IMG/VR virus record: IMGVR_UViG_2684622619_000009
Length of the DNA stretch: 5,837 bases
Strand: one strand, 5' to 3'
Origin: a virus
Taxonomy: Duplodnaviria > Heunggongvirae > Uroviricota > Caudoviricetes
The first letter of the stretch is position 1; each line of letters starts with the position of its first letter. Shown here piece by piece: positions 1 through 4,978 of the stretch. The position numbers and the translations under genes are program-made. Below the pieces are notes generated by a model that was given only the letters and a program-made list of their open reading frames with translations, ran no database searches and had not been told where the DNA came from.

Positions 1-72
1 TTGACCAACAATATTCATGCCGGATTTCTTCCGGATGTTCGAGGGTAAAGTTCGGTATCAGAAGAGGTGAGT

Positions 73-1128
73 ATGGCTAATGCCTGGCTCAGATTGTGGC
101 ATGACATGCCAAATGACCCCAAGTGGCGAACGATTGCCAGGGTATCAGGACAGCCAATCGCAACAGTGATGGCAGTGTATATCCATCTTCTGGTGAGCGC
201 GTCACGAAATGTCACGACATGTCACGGCGTGTCACTACGTGGTCACATTGATGTCACGACGGAAGATTTAGCAAGTGCGCTTGATGTGACGGAAGACGTA
301 ATTGATTCAATTTTGCATGCAATGCAGGGGCGGGTTCTGGATGGTGACCTTATTTCCGGATGGGAAAAACGTCAGGTGCTGAAAGAGGACAATGGTAACG
401 TTTCGCAAACGGCAAAATCCCCGGCAGAGCGCAAGAGAGCGCAGCGGGAGCGGGAAAAGCTGCGGAAACATAATGCTGATTGTCACGATGAGTCACGACG
501 TGTCACGCATCTGTCACGACAAGTCACGACAGATAAAGATACAGATAAAGATACAGATAAAGATACAGATACAGAATTAAACCCCACACATAACGCGCGC
601 GAGAGTATTCCGACCAGTGAGTCGAATGGTGCGCCGTTGCAGACAGCCGAACCTGAATACCTGGACGGCCTGAGCGAACCGATCGGGAAATTTTCGATGA
701 CTACTGTCTGGCAGCCGTCGCCGGATTTTCGACAACGGGCAGCAGTGTGGGGTATGGCTCTGCCTGAGCCGGAATTTACACCTGCTGAGCTTGCCGCATT
801 CCGGGATTACTGGATGGCGGAGGGGAAGGTTTTCACGCAGGTTCAGTGGGAGCAGAAATTTGCCCGCCACGTGCAGCACGTCAGGGCACAGGTAAAACCA
901 GTCAGCAAGGGGGGAAGCCATGCAGCATCAGGTGGCACGGCATCACGGGCAGTTCAGGAAATCCGGGCTGCACGCGAACAGTGGGAACGTGACAACGGAT
1001 TTATCAGCAACGGAAACGGCCTGGAAGCTGTGGGAGCTCATGGGGGAGGTGTATTCGAACCGCTGGACTCAGAAGAACGGGGCCGCACCTTCGAAGCTCT
1101 GGATTGCCCAGATTGGTGCGATGACTGA
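73..1128 (+). CDS. Phage replication initiator (lambda O-like replisome organizer with DnaT-like C-terminal region)
   Basis: Long ORF (track 67..1128); ATG at 73 sits 6 nt after AAGAGG (61-66), so 73 is preferred over GTG 67. Iteron clusters and an AT-rich repeat lie inside the coding sequence as in lambda O/ori. The C-terminal segment (TTVWQPSPDF...FTPAELAAFRDYWMAEGKVF...WEQKF) resembles DnaT-like domains of phage replication proteins, from memory. Followed directly by a P-like gene. Confidence 0.75.
   Translation: MANAWLRLWHDMPNDPKWRTIARVSGQPIATVMAVYIHLLVSASRNVTTCHGVSLRGHIDVTTEDLASALDVTEDVIDSILHAMQGRVLDGDLISGWEKRQVLKEDNGNVSQTAKSPAERKRAQREREKLRKHNADCHDESRRVTHLSRQVTTDKDTDKDTDKDTDTELNPTHNARESIPTSESNGAPLQTAEPEYLDGLSEPIGKFSMTTVWQPSPDFRQRAAVWGMALPEPEFTPAELAAFRDYWMAEGKVFTQVQWEQKFARHVQHVRAQVKPVSKGGSHAASGGTASRAVQEIRAAREQWERDNGFISNGNGLEAVGAHGGGVFEPLDSEERGRTFEALDCPDWCDD
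201..262. repeat. Iteron cluster A: six GTCAC(G)-core repeats phased at ~10-11 bp
   Basis: GTCAC starts at 201, 211, 221, 231, 242 and 253, all in direct orientation at helical-turn spacing; an inverted GTGAC copy follows at 286-290. Located inside the O-like CDS. Confidence 0.6.
482..530. repeat. Iteron cluster B: five GTCACG repeats phased at ~10-11 bp (putative initiator binding sites of the origin)
   Basis: GTCACG at 482, 492, 502, 513 and 523, directly abutting the AT-rich tandem repeat; this iterons-then-AT-rich layout matches lambda-type origins. Confidence 0.6.
531..575. repeat. 12-bp tandem repeat AGATAAAGATAC x3 plus partial copy (AT-rich, putative DNA unwinding element)
   Basis: Perfect copies at 531-542, 543-554 and 555-566, then AGATAC AGA. 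Encodes a (DKDT)n linker in the O-like protein. Confidence 0.7.
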
Positions 1129-1582
1129 ACAGCAAATCCGTCTGGTGTGCCGTCAGTGCATGGACCGCTGCCGGGCGGGTGAAACGTGGCCCCCGGACCT
1201 GGCTGAGTTTGTTGCGCTGATTTCGGAGAGTGGGGCAAATCCATTTGGTCTTACGGTGGATGCCGTGATGGAAGAGTACCGGCGCTGGCGCAATGAATCC
1301 TGGCGATACGACGGGAGTGATAAATACCCGTGGCCACAGCCTGTGCTGTACCACATCTGCCTCGAAATGCGTACCAGAGGGATTGAGCGCCAGATGACGC
1401 AAGGTGAGTTAAAACGACTTGCGGAACGGCAACTGACGAAATGGGCAAAGCATGTTGGTAACGGGATGAGTGTTCCGCCAGTGCGACGACAACTGGAAGG
1501 GGCGAAACACCCGCAAGGGCCAACGCCAATTGAACGGCTGAAACAGGAATACGAACGCCGGAAGGCAGCTGGTTTTATTTGA
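920..1582 (+). CDS. Lambda P-like replication protein (helicase-loader-like)
   Basis: Translation shows motifs I recall from lambda P: ...PPDLAEFVALI..., ...DKYPWPQPVLYHICLEM..., ...TQGELKRLAERQL...VPPVRRQL. ATG 920 is preceded by GGGG(AAG) 5 nt upstream. Alternative starts are ATG 1040 (GGGAG 5 nt upstream) and ATG 1121 (overlapping the O-like stop). The start is uncertain; the stop at 1582 is firm. Confidence 0.6.
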   Translation: MQHQVARHHGQFRKSGLHANSGNVTTDLSATETAWKLWELMGEVYSNRWTQKNGAAPSKLWIAQIGAMTEQQIRLVCRQCMDRCRAGETWPPDLAEFVALISESGANPFGLTVDAVMEEYRRWRNESWRYDGSDKYPWPQPVLYHICLEMRTRGIERQMTQGELKRLAERQLTKWAKHVGNGMSVPPVRRQLEGAKHPQGPTPIERLKQEYERRKAAGFI

Positions 1583-1615
1583 ATCTGAGAAACGATTTTG
1601 TCGGAGGAAATATTA

Positions 1616-2332
1616 ATGGAAACCGTATTTGACGCACTGAAAGCACTGAAAAAAGCCTCTTCACAGGTAGTGGCATCGCGCCTTGGAATCAGCCGCGAAG
1701 ATGCTGTCAACGAACTGTGGAAACTGAAGCGCCGTGGTGAAGCGGATAACAAGGGGTCGATGTGGTGGCTGACTCAGACTGGTGAAAGTGAACCAGTGTC
1801 ACCGGTACCGAAAGTGACAGCGCAAATGCTGACTGAGGCGATTGAACATCATGGCCCACAAACGGCGGATGAGCTGGCACTGATGTTCGGGATTACCTCC
1901 CGCCGGGCGAATTCATCACTGGCCATGGCAATCAGCAAAGGGCGTCTGATTCGCGTGAATCAGGGCGGTAAATTTCGGTACTGCATACCGGGCGCTGATT
2001 TACCGGCAGAGCCGAAAGCCGCATCCATAACGGAAACGGATGGTAAAGCCTTTCCTCAGCCAGCAGGTGTTGCGTTACCAGTCGGGGAAGCGGAAACACA
2101 GGAAGAAATAAAAACGGAAAGTGTGGCGGTCACAGTGCAGTCACAGCCGTCGTTCACCAGAAAGCATCCGGATGGTCTGATTTTACCATCGCTGCATGTG
2201 GCTAACCGCGAGCTGCGCCGGGCAAAAGGTCAGGTTCAGAAGTGGGAGCGAGTCTGCGCCGCGCTGCGGGAGCTGAACAAGTGCCGGGATATTCTCCGGG
2301 ATATTACCGCCACCAGAGAACAGCAGCGGTGA
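1616..2332 (+). CDS. Phage protein with two tandem winged-helix-like N-terminal repeats (nin-region protein, function unknown)
   Basis: ATG 1616 lies 8 nt after GGAGG (1603-1607); the track's 1598 start is a TTG. Two similar ~45-aa segments ([36 protein letters not shown] and [41 protein letters not shown]) suggest duplicated DNA-binding-like modules. Stop TGA 2330-2332. Confidence 0.7.
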
Positions 2333-2364
2333 GTGGGTGGAAGACGTGGTGCCGGGCGGAAATC

Positions 2365-2646
2365 ATGATACTCCGGCAGTGTGCGGGAACGATGAAGGTA
2401 AAAAGCGTTGGCGCACTTATCGGACGAACTGAAGCGGCAGTGAGAACGAAGGCACGGGAGCTGGGCATCAGCATGATGTTACGTGGTGATTTTCACCCGT
2501 CGGCAAAATATTCTCAGCGTGATATTGAGCTGGCGCGGCAACTGCATCAGAGAGGCATGCAAAGAAGGGAAATTGCCAGAAAATTAGGCATGCCGCTGCG
2601 CATAGTGAATAACTACGTTTATTTCGACAGGAGGGTGTCTGCGTGA
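2365..2646 (+). CDS. Small phage protein with helix-turn-helix-like segments
   Basis: Frame open 2242..2646, but the upstream part overlaps the preceding gene out of frame and looks non-coding (G/R/A-rich). Likely starts are GTG 2329 (GTGA overlap with the upstream stop) or ATG 2365; ATG 2365 is chosen. HTH-like stretches: SVGALIGRTEAAVRTKARELGI and RREIARKLGMPLRIV. The start is uncertain. Confidence 0.5.
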   Translation: MILRQCAGTMKVKSVGALIGRTEAAVRTKARELGISMMLRGDFHPSAKYSQRDIELARQLHQRGMQRREIARKLGMPLRIVNNYVYFDRRVSA

Positions 2647-2870
2647 AAATCCTGTATCAGGATTACGGCCCGGTGGGGCAGGTGGTTATCAGCAGTACTG
2701 TAATGGAGTTTCGGAAGCATAACCGTGTGGTGGATGCTGTGCTGTTAACCTGTCCGGGGATATCGGCGAGTCGTGCAGGTGTGTTTATTATGAAGACGAA
2801 ATTATATGGCAGTAAGGCGTGGATAAAGAAGGCGTATCGTGTAGCGTTGCAGGAGGTTAACAGTGAGTGA
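2643..2870 (+). CDS. Hypothetical phage protein (75 aa)
   Basis: GTG 2643 is 7 nt after AGGAGGG (2629-2635) and overlaps the upstream TGA (2644-2646), indicating translational coupling. Confidence 0.55.
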   Translation: MKILYQDYGPVGQVVISSTVMEFRKHNRVVDAVLLTCPGISASRAGVFIMKTKLYGSKAWIKKAYRVALQEVNSE

Positions 2871-3174
2871 AATTAAAGAAATGCCGGTAGTTCGTGACGG
2901 ATATGGCTACTGGACACATCCTGAATATGAAAAATTCTGTGATGGTCGGGAATATATTTCAACGGAAGAGTTTAACGCCTGGATGGAGGAAAATAATCTT
3001 CAATACGTCCTCTGCTTCAGAGATGAAGGATGTGCTGACCTTGATGCGTGTGATGCTGATATTTCTGCATGGGAACCGGAACGACCAGAGGGCGATGGCT
3101 GGTTTATTGGTTCCATTCATGATACGGAAGATGGCCCGGTTTGTGTCTGGTTGCGAAATAAGGCTGAAGCATAA
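2863..3174 (+). CDS. Hypothetical acidic phage protein (103 aa)
   Basis: GTG 2863 is 6 nt after a perfect AGGAGG (2851-2856) and overlaps the upstream stop (2868-2870). Acidic, Cys-containing product; stop TAA 3172-3174. Confidence 0.6.
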   Translation: MSEIKEMPVVRDGYGYWTHPEYEKFCDGREYISTEEFNAWMEENNLQYVLCFRDEGCADLDACDADISAWEPERPEGDGWFIGSIHDTEDGPVCVWLRNKAEA

Positions 3175-3273
3175 AGGCGATAAACCAACTAACAACTAAA
3201 TACTGAAGATTTAAATCAGAAACGATTTTTATTAAATCCTTAACCGGAGGGATTCCTGCACCCTCAGAACATC

Positions 3274-3301
3274 AGGAGGCCGCCCGAAAGGGCGGTAAGA
3301 A
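3274..3301 (+). promoter_or_regulatory. Translation initiation region: AGGAGG followed by a GC hairpin with GAAA tetraloop immediately upstream of ATG 3302 (possible hairpin-bridged Shine-Dalgarno)
   Basis: AGGAGG at 3274-3279; stem CCGCCC (3280-3285), loop GAAA, stem GGGCGG (3290-3295); then TAAGAA and ATG 3302. There is no U-tract, so it is not an intrinsic terminator. Confidence 0.35.
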
Positions 3302-3520
3302 ATGAAACATTATTTAGAAAAAAATTACCCACGAAAGAGCAGAACAACAGAGTTTCTGTTTTTCATTCTGTTTATAGTGTTGATGATACCGATATCCCCG
3401 CTATTACTGGTCTGGATAATTGGAAGGACATTTGAACCAGTTATTGAGCTATATACCGATGTGACATGGGAATCATTCAGCGCACTGCACAATAAAATTA
3501 ATCCGTATAAGGAAAACTGA
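3302..3520 (+). CDS. Small single-pass membrane protein (72 aa) in an AT-rich moron-like insert
   Basis: ORF with a basic N-terminus (KNYPRKSRTTE), one strongly hydrophobic segment (FLFFILFIVLMIPISPLLLVWIIG) and a soluble C-terminal tail. The gene and the ~125 bp upstream are visibly AT-rich compared with flanking genes (by eye, not computed). Stop TGA 3518-3520 sits 1 nt before the next ATG. Confidence 0.6.
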   Translation: MKHYLEKNYPRKSRTTEFLFFILFIVLMIPISPLLLVWIIGRTFEPVIELYTDVTWESFSALHNKINPYKEN

Positions 3521-3521
3521 T

Positions 3522-4079
3522 ATGAGCACTATTACCAGAGAACGCGCGGAGATTAAATCATACATCACAGGCTTCCTGAGCGACTCGGCGCACGATAACA
3601 AGTCTTCAGACAGCCTGCTGGCTAATGTGTTTCGTATCGCGCTGGCATCACTGGAAGCAGAGCCGATAGCAATGGTAGTGCCTGATGAAATGGATTTGCT
3701 TACCTGCCATCTCGACGGTGTAACTAAAACATATGCTGATGGCTGGAACGCCTGCCGCGTCGCCATGCTTCAGGCCGGAAACTTTCGGGAAAATAAGAAT
3801 TCGTCAACCAACAATTTTCGGGAAATCTCGGAAACGTCAACCAGATCTCCGATAACTCTGGATGGCTGGATAAGCTGTACTGAGCGAATGCCTGAAAAGA
3901 GCCAGAACGTGCTTATTTCGATGAATATCGATAGCGAGGCTGGGCCATTAATATATTCCGCACGCTATCTCGGAGGCACGTTCCGGCGCGGAGGTATAGC
4001 AGTTAGTCCGGGTAATGATCTTAGGCAAGCAACCCACTGGATGTCGCTACCAGAACCGCCGCAGGAGGTGAATCAATGA
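3522..4079 (+). CDS. DUF551-like prophage protein (185 aa)
   Basis: ATG 3522 is 8 nt after AAGGA (3509-3513). The C-terminal ~70 aa (DGWISCTERMPE...ATHWMSLPEPPQ) matches my recollection of the DUF551 signature (W-I-s...LPe start, THWMPLPEPP end). Not verified by search. Confidence 0.7.
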   Translation: MSTITRERAEIKSYITGFLSDSAHDNKSSDSLLANVFRIALASLEAEPIAMVVPDEMDLLTCHLDGVTKTYADGWNACRVAMLQAGNFRENKNSSTNNFREISETSTRSPITLDGWISCTERMPEKSQNVLISMNIDSEAGPLIYSARYLGGTFRRGGIAVSPGNDLRQATHWMSLPEPPQEVNQ

Positions 4080-4159
4080 CCTGGCCTGAAGCATTCACAA
4101 CGGTAGGAATTGCGATGGCGGTGGCGCTGGTGGTGTATTCGATTTGCCGCTGGGGATAA
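4076..4159 (+). CDS. Small hydrophobic peptide (27 aa), translationally coupled to the DUF551-like gene; absent from the supplied ORF track
   Basis: ATG 4076 overlaps the upstream TGA (ATGA) and lies 7 nt after GGAGG (4064-4068). Product MTWPEAFTTVGIAMAVALVVYSICRWG is a single predicted transmembrane helix. Stop TAA 4157-4159. Confidence 0.4.
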   Translation: MTWPEAFTTVGIAMAVALVVYSICRWG

Positions 4160-4165
4160 AAACGG

Positions 4166-4194
4166 TTTGCGGGAAAAGGATAGTTAAGTAGAAT
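4166..4194 (+). promoter_or_regulatory. Putative sigma70 promoter of the hok mRNA
   Basis: -35-like TTTGCG/TTGCGG (4166-4172), 16-17 bp spacer, -10 TAGAAT (4189-4194); the predicted transcript start near 4201 coincides with the conserved hok 5' leader sequence. Confidence 0.4.
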
Positions 4195-4198
4195 TGCT

Positions 4199-4226
4199 GC
4201 GGGTGCTTGAGGCTATCTGCCTCGGG
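4199..4226 (+). promoter_or_regulatory. hok mRNA 5' leader: stem-loop GAGGC-TATCT-GCCTC and the 5' partner of the fold-back pairing
   Basis: GCGGGTGCTTGAGG (4199-4212) is complementary to CCTCAACGCACCCGC (4492-4506) with one bulge; hairpin at 4209-4223. The layout resembles the 5' end of plasmid R1 hok mRNA as I recall it. Confidence 0.5.
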
Positions 4227-4243
4227 CATGAACACCAACGGCA

Positions 4244-4319
4244 NNNNNNNNNNNNNNNNNNNNNNNNNNNNNNNNNNNNNNNNNNNNNNNNNNNNNNNNN
4301 NNNNNNNNNNNNNNNNNNN
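4244..4319. other. Run of 76 N (masked or unresolved sequence) inside the hok locus
   Basis: Directly visible. It interrupts the hok leader and hides the start of the hok reading frame. Confidence 0.99.
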
Positions 4320-4442
4320 ATCGTCATCTGTTTAACCGTCATAGTGACGGCACTGGTAACGAGGAAAGACCTCTGCGAGGTGCGAATCCGAACCGGTCAG
4401 ACGGAGGTCGCTGTCTTCGTAGACTACGAATCTGAGAAGTAA
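4287..4442 (+). CDS. hok: Hok/Gef family type I toxin (HokC/HokD-like); N-terminal ~11 codons fall inside the N-run
   Basis: Visible translation 4320..4439 is IVICLTVIVTALVTRKDLCEVRIRTGQTEVAVFVDYESEK, stop TAA 4440-4442. It closely matches the Hok/Gef core as I recall HokC/HokD (…ALVTRKDLCEV.IRTGQTEVAVF…). Start 4287 is inferred from a ~51-aa family length and assumes the N-run length is accurate. Confidence 0.8.
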   Translation, partial: XXXXXXXXXXXIVICLTVIVTALVTRKDLCEVRIRTGQTEVAVFVDYESEK

Positions 4443-4449
4443 GAGACCA

Positions 4450-4506
4450 GGCGGGGGAGTAATCTCCCGCCACCTCTGATGTGTCAGGCATCCTCAACGC
4501 ACCCGC
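4450..4506 (+). promoter_or_regulatory. hok mRNA 3' structured region: post-stop hairpin and fold-back-inhibition (fbi) element
   Basis: Hairpin GGCGGGGGAG-TAAT-CTCCCGCC (4450-4471) with no U-tract; 4492-4506 pairs with the 5' leader at 4199-4212. Confidence 0.5.
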
Positions 4507-4922: not shown

Positions 4923-4951
4923 AGCCCGTCTTACTGACGGGTTTTCTGTTT
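4923..4951 (+). terminator. Rho-independent terminator downstream of the YgiW-family gene
   Basis: Stem CCCGTC (4925-4930), loop TTACT, stem GACGGG (4936-4941), followed by TTTTCTGTTT (4942-4951). Confidence 0.6.
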
Positions 4952-4978
4952 GTACATTCCGGCGTATTGCCTTACAAT
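4950..4978 (+). promoter_or_regulatory. Possible sigma70 promoter for the downstream two-gene unit
   Basis: TTGTAC (4950-4955), 17 bp spacer, TACAAT (4973-4978). Weak -35; prediction by eye only. Confidence 0.3.

Follow-up and report, generated by a model that had tools for sequence, protein, structure and literature searches.

How can a start codon be served by a Shine–Dalgarno (SD) sequence that lies far outside the usual distance from it? This question is raised by a short locus within 5,837 nucleotides of Caudoviricetes DNA (IMG/VR record IMGVR_UViG_2684622619_000009), a stretch that we refer to as the window. Here, a consensus SD is followed immediately by a G+C-rich hairpin, and only then by a spacer and the ATG of a small gene. 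The features of the locus are as follows.

3231..3245, + strand: 5' part of the cassette, AUUAAAUCCUUAACC, A/U-rich, with UCCU at 3237–3240 complementary to the SD
3246..3265, + strand: leader hairpin HP1, in which GGAGG (3247–3251) faces CCCUC (3261–3265) around the loop AUUCCUGCA (3252–3260)
3274..3279, + strand: strong SD, AGGAGG, directly abutting the hairpin HP2
3280..3295, + strand: hairpin HP2, CCGCCC-GAAA-GGGCGG, with six G-C pairs, a GNRA tetraloop and a possible seventh pair, G3279.U3296
3296..3301, + strand: A-rich 6-nt spacer, UAAGAA, between the base of HP2 and the ATG at 3302–3304
3302..3520, + strand: DUF4014 gene, 72 aa, one predicted membrane helix, stop codon TGA at 3518–3520
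3522..4079, + strand: DUF551 gene (Pfam DUF551, E = 5e-20)

A distant SD and a hairpin before a prophage gene

Direct reading of the window confirmed the coordinates of the first-pass annotation, which had placed AGGAGG at 3274–3279, 22 nt before the ATG at 3302 (counted from the last G of the SD to the A of the start codon). The perfect 6-bp GC stem with a GAAA loop that it had described at 3280–3295 was recovered both in the sequence and by folding, and it was correct in seeing a weak SD-like sequence, GGCGG, within the 3' arm of HP2. Between the base of HP2 and the ATG, 6 nt remain. Upstream, a conserved block begins at 3231, as defined by BLAST matches to Rac, vB_EcoS-813R8 and others. We use the term 67-nt cassette for window positions 3231–3297, which comprise the leader and the hairpin; the minimal common unit consists of UCAGGAGG, the hairpin and UA, about 25 nt in all.

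The ORF at 3302–3520 has its first possible in-frame start at 3302. Its product matches the Pfam DUF4014 profile with E = 1e-24, residues 1–72 falling on positions 1–72 of the 72-position profile. Since this match is full-length, the start codon at 3302 is right, and the RefSeq protein WP_000683609.1 has an identical start. We infer that translation of DUF4014 is started by the SD–hairpin element. The ATG of the DUF551 gene lies 1 nt past the DUF4014 stop, so DUF551 is probably translationally coupled to DUF4014 and would rely indirectly on the initiation region of that gene; DUF551 also has a weak SD, UAAGGAA, which ends 7 nt before its start.

The window is a segment of a lambdoid, Rac-like prophage. 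Upstream of the element and on the same strand, it encodes a DnaT-domain replication protein, a lambda-P-like protein, a DUF1627 protein and small ORFs. DUF4014 is followed by DUF551, a hok/gef-like gene (partly N-masked) and a BOF/YgiW gene, and identical genomes continue further with DUF968, RusA and DUF1133. A stretch of 500 nt of the window is 100% identical to many STEC genomes, and positions 1–4243 share 99.9% identity with an IMG/VR contig.

The predicted folding energy of HP2 is -12.4 kcal/mol, or -14.4 kcal/mol with the seventh pair G3279.U3296. The hairpin is present in the minimum-free-energy structure, and its pair probability is 0.99–1.0 in folding contexts of 110, 226 and 421 nt. 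In the window, 14 perfect stems of at least 6 bp were found, compared with 8.3 ± 3.4 in dinucleotide shuffles. HP2 ranks as the most stable of these 14. None of the others combines an all-G+C stem with a 4-nt loop, a type of which 0.03 are expected per shuffled window.

AGGAGG pairs with the 3' end of the 16S rRNA at -10.3 kcal/mol; no other strong SD and no better site occurs within 40 nt of the start. The 3' arm of HP2, AGGGCGGUA, reaches -7.8 kcal/mol against the anti-SD, conditional on HP2 being unfolded, and the 6-nt spacer at most -3.0 kcal/mol. In the other genes of the window, the best SD ends 4–7 nt before the start; the DUF4014 gene is an outlier at 21 nt. This is the arrangement of a split translation initiation region (TIR): a strong SD lies more than 15 nt from the start, no other usable SD stands at a canonical distance, and a stable local hairpin begins at the SD and ends 5–11 nt before the start.

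From the sequence, we lean towards reading positions 3274–3304 as a constitutive split (noncontiguous) TIR that is reused as a portable module at mosaic junctions. The anti-SD of the 30S subunit would pair with AGGAGG, the next 16 nt would fold into the very stable tetraloop hairpin and be looped out, and the AUG, far off in linear terms, would thereby be presented ~6 nt from the SD. Ribosomes would thus use AGGAGG across the folded hairpin. The unit would give translation initiation to any accessory gene behind it, in both early operons of lambdoid/Rac-like prophages.

In this proposal the hairpin would be constitutive and would not act as a switch. A structure-dependent switch had been suggested in the first-pass annotation, and the present data do not support it. 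HP2 is predicted to be closed essentially always and nothing points to two regulated states; nor is the loop strictly kept, as GGCA, UAAA and AAAA variants occur.

Several other identities were considered for the element and rejected. It is not an intrinsic terminator, having no U-tract on either strand (the tails are UAAGAAAUG on the + strand and CCUCCUGAUG on the - strand), and no terminator-like site was found in 2800–3700 of the window nor in locus L003. A leader peptide or small ORF running through the hairpin was rejected on the grounds that the relevant frames contain no ATG, GTG or TTG from the stops at 3213 or 3233 to 3302, and a programmed frameshift signal on the grounds that no slippery heptamer lies between the SD and the hairpin. 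The window shows an ATGA overlap that other copies do not conserve. No consensus match to a sigma-70 promoter was found in the A/T-rich stretch preceding the cassette; by eye, only weak candidates can be picked out there, all lacking A as the second base of the -10 hexamer. Scanning of the whole window with Rfam 15 gave no match on the element, and a permissive scan of 171 nt returned best scores of 20.5 and 18.3 bits against thresholds of 45. Pas sRNAs carry a 3' stem-loop with a poly-U terminator, and PasA, PasC and PasD1 typically lie by the holin/lysozyme operon (bioRxiv 10.64898/2026.05.13.724894); the element is without poly-U, and a Pas-type Hfq-dependent prophage sRNA was rejected.

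A repeated cassette at mosaic junctions

The element is a repeated portable cassette that occurs in many prophages and is not tied to DUF4014, an aspect missed in the first reading of the window. We scanned IMG/VR and a set of one genome per species with patterns that left either the hairpin or the leader free and never fixed SD and stem at the same time. Together with earlier loci, these scans yielded ~185 instances. All real pattern-scan matches lay in prophages of Escherichia, Shigella or Citrobacter, and the one-genome-per-species scan returned the cassette from these three genera only. This narrow taxonomic range limited the depth of the covariation analysis.

Within E. coli the cassette is abundant. 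The 67-nt sequence is present in 2604 of 5426 complete genomes (48%), where it occupies 4104 places, up to six per genome, and no annotated feature lies under it among the E. coli matches listed. A further 19 phage records contain it, including mEp460, ArgO145, PhiR42_1 and Rac-SA53. Our literature search found nothing on the sequence of the element or on DUF4014. In a comparison of ~190 phage and prophage loci, the SD–hairpin–start geometry was seen in this hairpin family only. The same 19-nt hairpin does occur in Salmonella and Erwinia jumbo phages, where it has no SD before it and a U-rich tail; these cases were set aside as unrelated.

A BLAST search against phages returned three types of match. 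In the first, the cassette and the DUF4014 gene match together; in the second, the gene alone matches, beginning at its start codon. The third type covers only 3231–3297, and the same 67 nt stand before unrelated genes in Rac, vB_EcoS-813R8 and 613R10. In Stx phages of the 933W type, another ORF precedes the DUF4014 gene, whose GTG start lies 6–7 nt after a GGAG SD, without the hairpin.

Two upstream contexts can be distinguished. Context A, to which the window belongs, has a conserved 44-nt leader before the SD. In context B, the unit directly follows the stop codon of a 70-aa ORF (...GAUUAAUGUCGGGAGG...). Both are present in some phages, ~1 kb apart in one operon. The cassette also varies in its genomic position, lying in the leftward accessory region in ArgO145 and mEp460 and after the replication genes in the window. 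The presence of the unit on both the PR and the PL sides rules out a position-specific transcription signal.

The borders of the unit are exactly where mosaic junctions lie. In the chimera L160, the left flank corresponds to copy 1 and the right flank to copy 2 of an L030-type phage, and the two overlap only in the 25-nt unit. The unit is a crossover point for gene exchange. We regard this property as following from its being a conserved repeat, and not as the primary function.

The same observations could be taken to mean that the unit is purely a recombination linker acting at the DNA level, a palindrome-containing sequence kept for the homologous exchange of modules and with no role in expression. 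Junctions exactly at its edges, the L160 crossover inside its 25 nt and the presence of up to six copies per genome would all be expected of such a linker. However, a linker has no need of a consensus SD that abuts a hairpin at a fixed distance from a start codon, and any conserved functional sequence becomes a crossover point as a by-product. Its two arms, moreover, evolve asymmetrically, in the manner of + strand RNA pairing and unlike a DNA palindrome. We consider an exclusively DNA-level role quite improbable.

Spacing, substitution pattern and leader

In all ~185 instances the SD abuts the hairpin, and at least six unrelated gene families are found behind it. The spacers between the base of the hairpin and the start codon, and the presence of a separate SD, are given here by family.

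DUF7167 (MRKFKIIIE): spacer of 7 nt, no SD of its own
DUF4014: spacer of 6 nt, no SD of its own
MTELTKEQ: spacer of 9 nt, no SD of its own
MQDIKENI: spacer of 9 nt, no SD of its own
MLTLKHF: spacer of 8 nt, no SD of its own
MGITKERLL: spacer of 11 nt, own SD UGGAGA, 6 nt from the AUG

These data support the idea of a hairpin-bridged SD put forward in the first-pass annotation: SD and hairpin are always adjacent, 6–9 nt remain before the start in five unrelated families, and hairpin-less versions of the same genes carry a canonical SD at 4–8 nt. DUF4014 genes without the hairpin have the junction AAAGGAG-AGUGAU-GUG or GGGAG-UGAU-AUG, and MTELTK genes without it have UUAAGGAG-UAACAC-AUG. The canonical SD distance in these hairpin-less genes equals the residual spacing of the hairpin versions, which formally look like a canonical TIR into which 16 nt have been inserted after the SD and ahead of the spacer. 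Several families have spacers that look homologous (UAAUGAA-like), so that the 6–9 nt rule may come partly from common descent and not from repeated selection.

The unit is also kept where it is useless as the SD of the next gene. The MGITKERLL family carries a separate SD between hairpin and start; in L186 (from Citrobacter) and L127, the module after the unit is convergent; and in L183/L185 no close start codon follows, a QueH-like gene starting ~60 nt further on. Units without a served start may be leftovers of recombination, or may be the sign of a second role, such as protection of mRNA.

A role of this kind, which corresponds to the second option of the first-pass annotation (RNA processing or stability), would make the element an mRNA stabiliser or processing barrier, at which a 30S subunit on AGGAGG and the hairpin together block RNase E scanning or 3' exonucleases. 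It would protect the accessory segment of a long early transcript, and the start codon would be served weakly or otherwise. A precedent is the STAB-SD of Bacillus, an SD-like sequence in a UTR that binds the 30S subunit without serving a start codon and prolongs the life of the mRNA. Retention of the unit before a gene with its own SD, and in L186, L127 and L183 without a nearby start, is compatible with a stabiliser, and the intercistronic location in long operons, sometimes twice per operon, agrees with it, as does a loop whose identity is as unconstrained as that of a generic obstacle. However, the distance of 6–9 nt from hairpin to start in the five families that have no other SD would be left unexplained, as would an SD at just that distance in the hairpin-less versions. 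We think it rather unlikely that stabilisation is the explanation of the element; the stabiliser and split-TIR roles are not mutually exclusive.

The conservation of the hairpin in related prophages, named in the first-pass annotation as a check on its function, is complete among the instances collected. A hairpin forms at the HP2 position in 185 of 185 instances with an energy of -5.4 kcal/mol or lower, and in 178 of the 185 at -8.4 kcal/mol or lower. Over 62 distinct cassette sequences, 97% of the stem cells are paired. We found one compensatory change from G-C to A-U, in L039, and A.C intermediates in L097 and L161. Stem mismatches are seen in the haplotypes CGGCCC (n = 10 loci), CAGCCC (n = 2) and CCACCC/GGGCAG (n = 3). 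All covariation measures were within shuffled controls, owing to the fact that the copies are ~90% identical.

The substitutions are distributed unevenly between the arms. Raw counts, uncorrected for shared ancestry, gave 17 cells with wobble-preserving C-to-U changes, spread over four of the five Cs in the 5' arm, and two cells with pair-breaking G-to-A changes, at one position of the 3' arm. Within one gene family, the diversity was 0.126 for the block with the 5' arm and most of the loop versus 0.031 for the block with the 3' arm. This asymmetry in the sequences favours a + strand RNA over a DNA palindrome. In the SD, GGAG is invariant in alignment A1, and the last G is replaced by A in 18 loci, which makes the seventh pair A-U instead of G.U.

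The 3' arm, where conservation within the hairpin is highest, might be suspected of being the true SD. In such a scheme GGGCGGU, 5 nt from the AUG, would be sequestered in a repressive hairpin, AGGAGG would hold the 30S subunit at a standby site, and the gene would be expressed at a low level or conditionally until the hairpin breathes or is opened. At -7.8 kcal/mol the 3' arm does outperform the SDs of the neighbouring genes (-5.8 to -6.2 kcal/mol), and leader sequences can sequester AGGAGG as well. However, opening the hairpin would cost 12–15 kcal/mol for a gain of 7.8 kcal/mol, and the central mismatch of GGCGG is kept in all variants, with no drift to GGAGG. The conservation of the 3' arm is explained equally by the tolerance of G.U pairs in the 5' arm. 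A standby mechanism therefore seems to us very doubtful.

In context A, the strongest conservation within the cassette is found in the 44 nt before the SD, whose diversity of 0.02–0.06 is below that of the downstream coding sequence; the columns of 3231..3245 are near-invariant in alignment A1. HP1 is part of the minimum-free-energy structure, and 98.7% of its cells are paired over 62 distinct sequences. Its stem, which joins an SD-like GGAGG to an anti-SD-like CCCUC, is nearly invariant, and its loop is variable. The predicted pair probability of HP1 is 0.08–0.45, a low value that results from competition with pairing of the SD. In an alternative helix, UUCCUG in the HP1 loop (3253–3258) pairs with CAGGAG (3273–3278); this helix is 94% paired, without covariation.

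The partner of the SD differs among the context A variants and may be UUCCUG 3253–3258, UCCU 3237–3240 or CCCUC 3261–3265. The predicted probability of the SD being unpaired is 0.21 in the window, where it is mostly paired with leader pyrimidines, and the median for context A is 0.48. A switch through SD-sequestering leader pairing thus has the pairing it requires, without conservation of that pairing across variants, and a conserved riboswitch-like function of HP1 or of the sequestering alternative was rejected on the variation of the SD partner and the lack of covariation. A regulated switch within the leader is possible, and is not supported by these data. In context B, the SD is predicted to be ~90% unpaired with the hairpin closed, and by this modelling context B would be the cleanest presentation of the split-TIR arrangement. 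Context B lacks the leader, which is therefore dispensable for the SD–hairpin unit as such.

The GCCC-GAAA-GGGC core of HP2 resembles the boxB of lambda, GCCCU-GAAAA-AGGGC, which raises the question of a site for a protein or elongation factor, be it a boxB-like site for N, an ops-like site for RfaH or the operator of a phage RNA-binding repressor. Nut sites have a conserved 5-nt GNRA-like boxB loop, a boxA a few nt upstream and fixed locations after the early promoters. The loop of HP2 has 4 nt, not 5, and varies, with GGCA, UAAA and AAAA in some copies, which argues against specific recognition of the GNRA fold. The same element lies deep in both early operons, in phages of differing gene content, and a lambda nut site was rejected. 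As for RfaH, many copies contain GGCGGTAG, the first 8 nt of ops. The complete ops is GGCGGTAGnnTG, in which G5, T6, G8 and T11 are essential (PMC5995543). The window reads GGCGGTAAGAAA, wrong at G8, T11 and G12, and other copies read GGCGGTAGTGAA or GGCGGTAGTTAA, with A in place of T11; ops was rejected in both. We regard a factor-binding site as so improbable that it carries almost no weight.

Relation to known split initiation regions

To our knowledge, only a handful of split ribosome-binding sites (RBSs) are known, namely those of T4 genes 38 and 25, thrS and rpmE. By analogy, the element most likely works like the split RBS of T4 gene 38, and would thus employ a known trick. Read directly, the T4 37–38 junction is UAAGGAG-AGGGGC-UUCG-GCCCUU-CUAAAU-AUG, in which the distance of 22 nt is made up of a stable tetraloop hairpin and then 6 nt. 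The likeness to T4 drawn in the first-pass annotation holds, the gene 37–38 junction having the same layout (PMC3014915). For T4 the arrangement has experimental backing: folding is reported to bring the SD of gene 38, 22 nt from its AUG, to within 5 nt of it, and to shorten the 27 nt at gene 25 (26–25 junction) to 11 nt; mutations that destabilise T4 split TIRs lower translation, and gene 25 was studied by DMS probing with lacZ fusions (PMC3014915; PMC7297116).

The resemblance to gene 38 extends to details. In both, the SD abuts a G+C-rich stem of 6–8 bp with an extra-stable tetraloop, the linear distance from SD to AUG is 22 nt, and the residual spacer is short and A/U-rich. Both are intercistronic with the upstream stop beside the SD, in our case in context B (PMC3014915). 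However, T4 has a UUCG loop in place of GAAA, and there is no sequence homology. Furthermore, T4 is virulent and has the arrangement at one late gene, whereas here a single sequence stands in temperate phages before at least six unrelated early accessory genes and is repeated within genomes.

As in T4 gene 25 and in thrS and rpmE of E. coli, which are described in the same papers (PMC3014915; PMC7297116), a stable hairpin would be tolerated or required inside the RBS and would join its elements. In thrS and rpmE, unlike here, an autoregulatory protein uses the hairpin as its operator, and the hairpin is placed upstream of the SD or separates other elements; the prophage element gives no indication of a regulator.

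Its portability invites two further comparisons. Mosaic lambdoid phages have conserved linker or boundary sequences at gene junctions, as part of the idea of modular exchange. Like these linkers, the unit is a short conserved intergenic sequence with unrelated flanking genes, and crossovers map to it; unlike them, it has a defined TIR anatomy. Bicistronic designs and insulated synthetic RBS parts provide a standard initiation region that can be placed before any gene, and the unit shares this movable character. In contrast to the synthetic parts, it is natural, has a looped-out hairpin instead of a leader cistron, and is predicted to have an SD of moderate accessibility in the leader context.

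These comparisons lead to a wider reading, which we advance only tentatively. The unit may be a standard adaptor, at once a self-contained split RBS that translates any gene placed 6–9 nt behind it and a preferred crossover site for shuffling, deleting and acquiring genes, and hence the homologous-recombination counterpart of a gene-cassette system, to which the 44-nt leader would add translational control.

Compared with the known split TIRs, the notable aspects of the element are that it is portable, repeated, very widespread and unannotated. Should it be confirmed, no other natural split RBS would be nearly as widespread, since the cassette occurs in some half of the complete E. coli genomes, and it would be the first to be reused before many unrelated genes. 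A rule for gene callers and models of RBS strength would also follow, namely that an SD more than 20 nt upstream counts when a stable hairpin bridges the distance. For the phages themselves, the unit would mark a defined site of exchange for the accessory genes of Shiga-toxin and Rac-type prophages.

Leader and cassette boundary

Conservation of the 44-nt leader preceding the Shine–Dalgarno (SD) sequence exceeds that of the hairpin and of the coding sequence that follows the hairpin. The leader contains a hairpin of its own, and three pyrimidine motifs within window positions 3231-3273 are potential sequesterers of the real SD. A short way 5' of the 67-nt cassette (leader, SD and hairpin) lies an A/T-rich palindrome, the equivalent position of which is occupied in other variants by a 9-bp A/T inverted repeat (ATTAAATTT...AAATTTAAT). 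A promoter consensus was looked for in the palindrome region and none was found.

Window 3208-3217: A/T-rich palindrome GATTTAAATC
Within window 3231-3273: leader hairpin, SD-like GGAGG paired with anti-SD-like CCCUC

Cassette copies that have no gene start behind the hairpin occur in L186, L127 and L183/L185. The first two are listed below; in L183/L185 the gene after the cassette is QueH-like and starts ~60 nt away. In these copies GGGCGG forms an exact boundary, with novel DNA directly after it.

L186 (Citrobacter braakii), ~6685-6760, reverse strand: cassette, next module convergent
L127, ~8543-8620: cassette, next module convergent

Genes and hairpins downstream of the cassette

The first 7-8 codons of the DUF4014 gene (window 3302-3325; MKHYLEKN) are out of frame relative to its relatives (MTTLFRKE, MVTLFRKK). 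The underlying DNA is near-identical and a 1-nt indel brings the frame back, and thus the N-terminus right behind the junction is under weak constraint. At its other end, the DUF4014 gene is separated from the DUF551 gene by 1 nt, so that, judged from this spacing, translation of DUF551 is probably coupled to that of DUF4014.

Further downstream, a hok/gef-type toxin gene has its 5' half masked by a run of 76 N (window 4244-4319), which is probably why no hok/Sok Rfam match was obtained for the window. The stable hairpin just 3' of the stop codon of this gene probably represents the 3' structure of a hok-type mRNA, and a second hairpin, past the BOF/YgiW gene, is a likely intrinsic terminator.

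Window 3518-3524: DUF4014 stop (TGA 3518-3520) and DUF551 start (ATG 3522)
Window 4320-4442: hok/gef-type toxin gene, readable C-terminal half
Window 4451-4475: hairpin GGCGGGGAG-UAAU-CUCCCGCC, without U-tract
Window 4925-4953: hairpin CCCGUC-UUACU-GACGGG followed by UUUUCUGUUUGU, 19 nt past BOF/YgiW

Paired units and spread of the SD-hairpin unit

Some prophages carry two SD-hairpin units within a single operon, spaced 1.0-1.7 kb apart. One of these, L160, is a chimera of both flanks of another, L030, and the crossover falls inside the 25-nt unit.

L030, 5225 and 6289, reverse strand: SD-hairpin units
L160, 2875 and 4571, reverse strand: SD-hairpin units
L272 (phage vB_EcoM-Ro157c2YLVW, Punavirus, P1-like), 600-630: context-B copy (the type found directly after the stop codon of a 70-aa ORF)

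In the L272 copy the SD is mutated to GGGAUG, and a short remnant ORF lies downstream of the copy. Because this phage is P1-like, the unit has spread, and its range extends, beyond the lambdoid phages.
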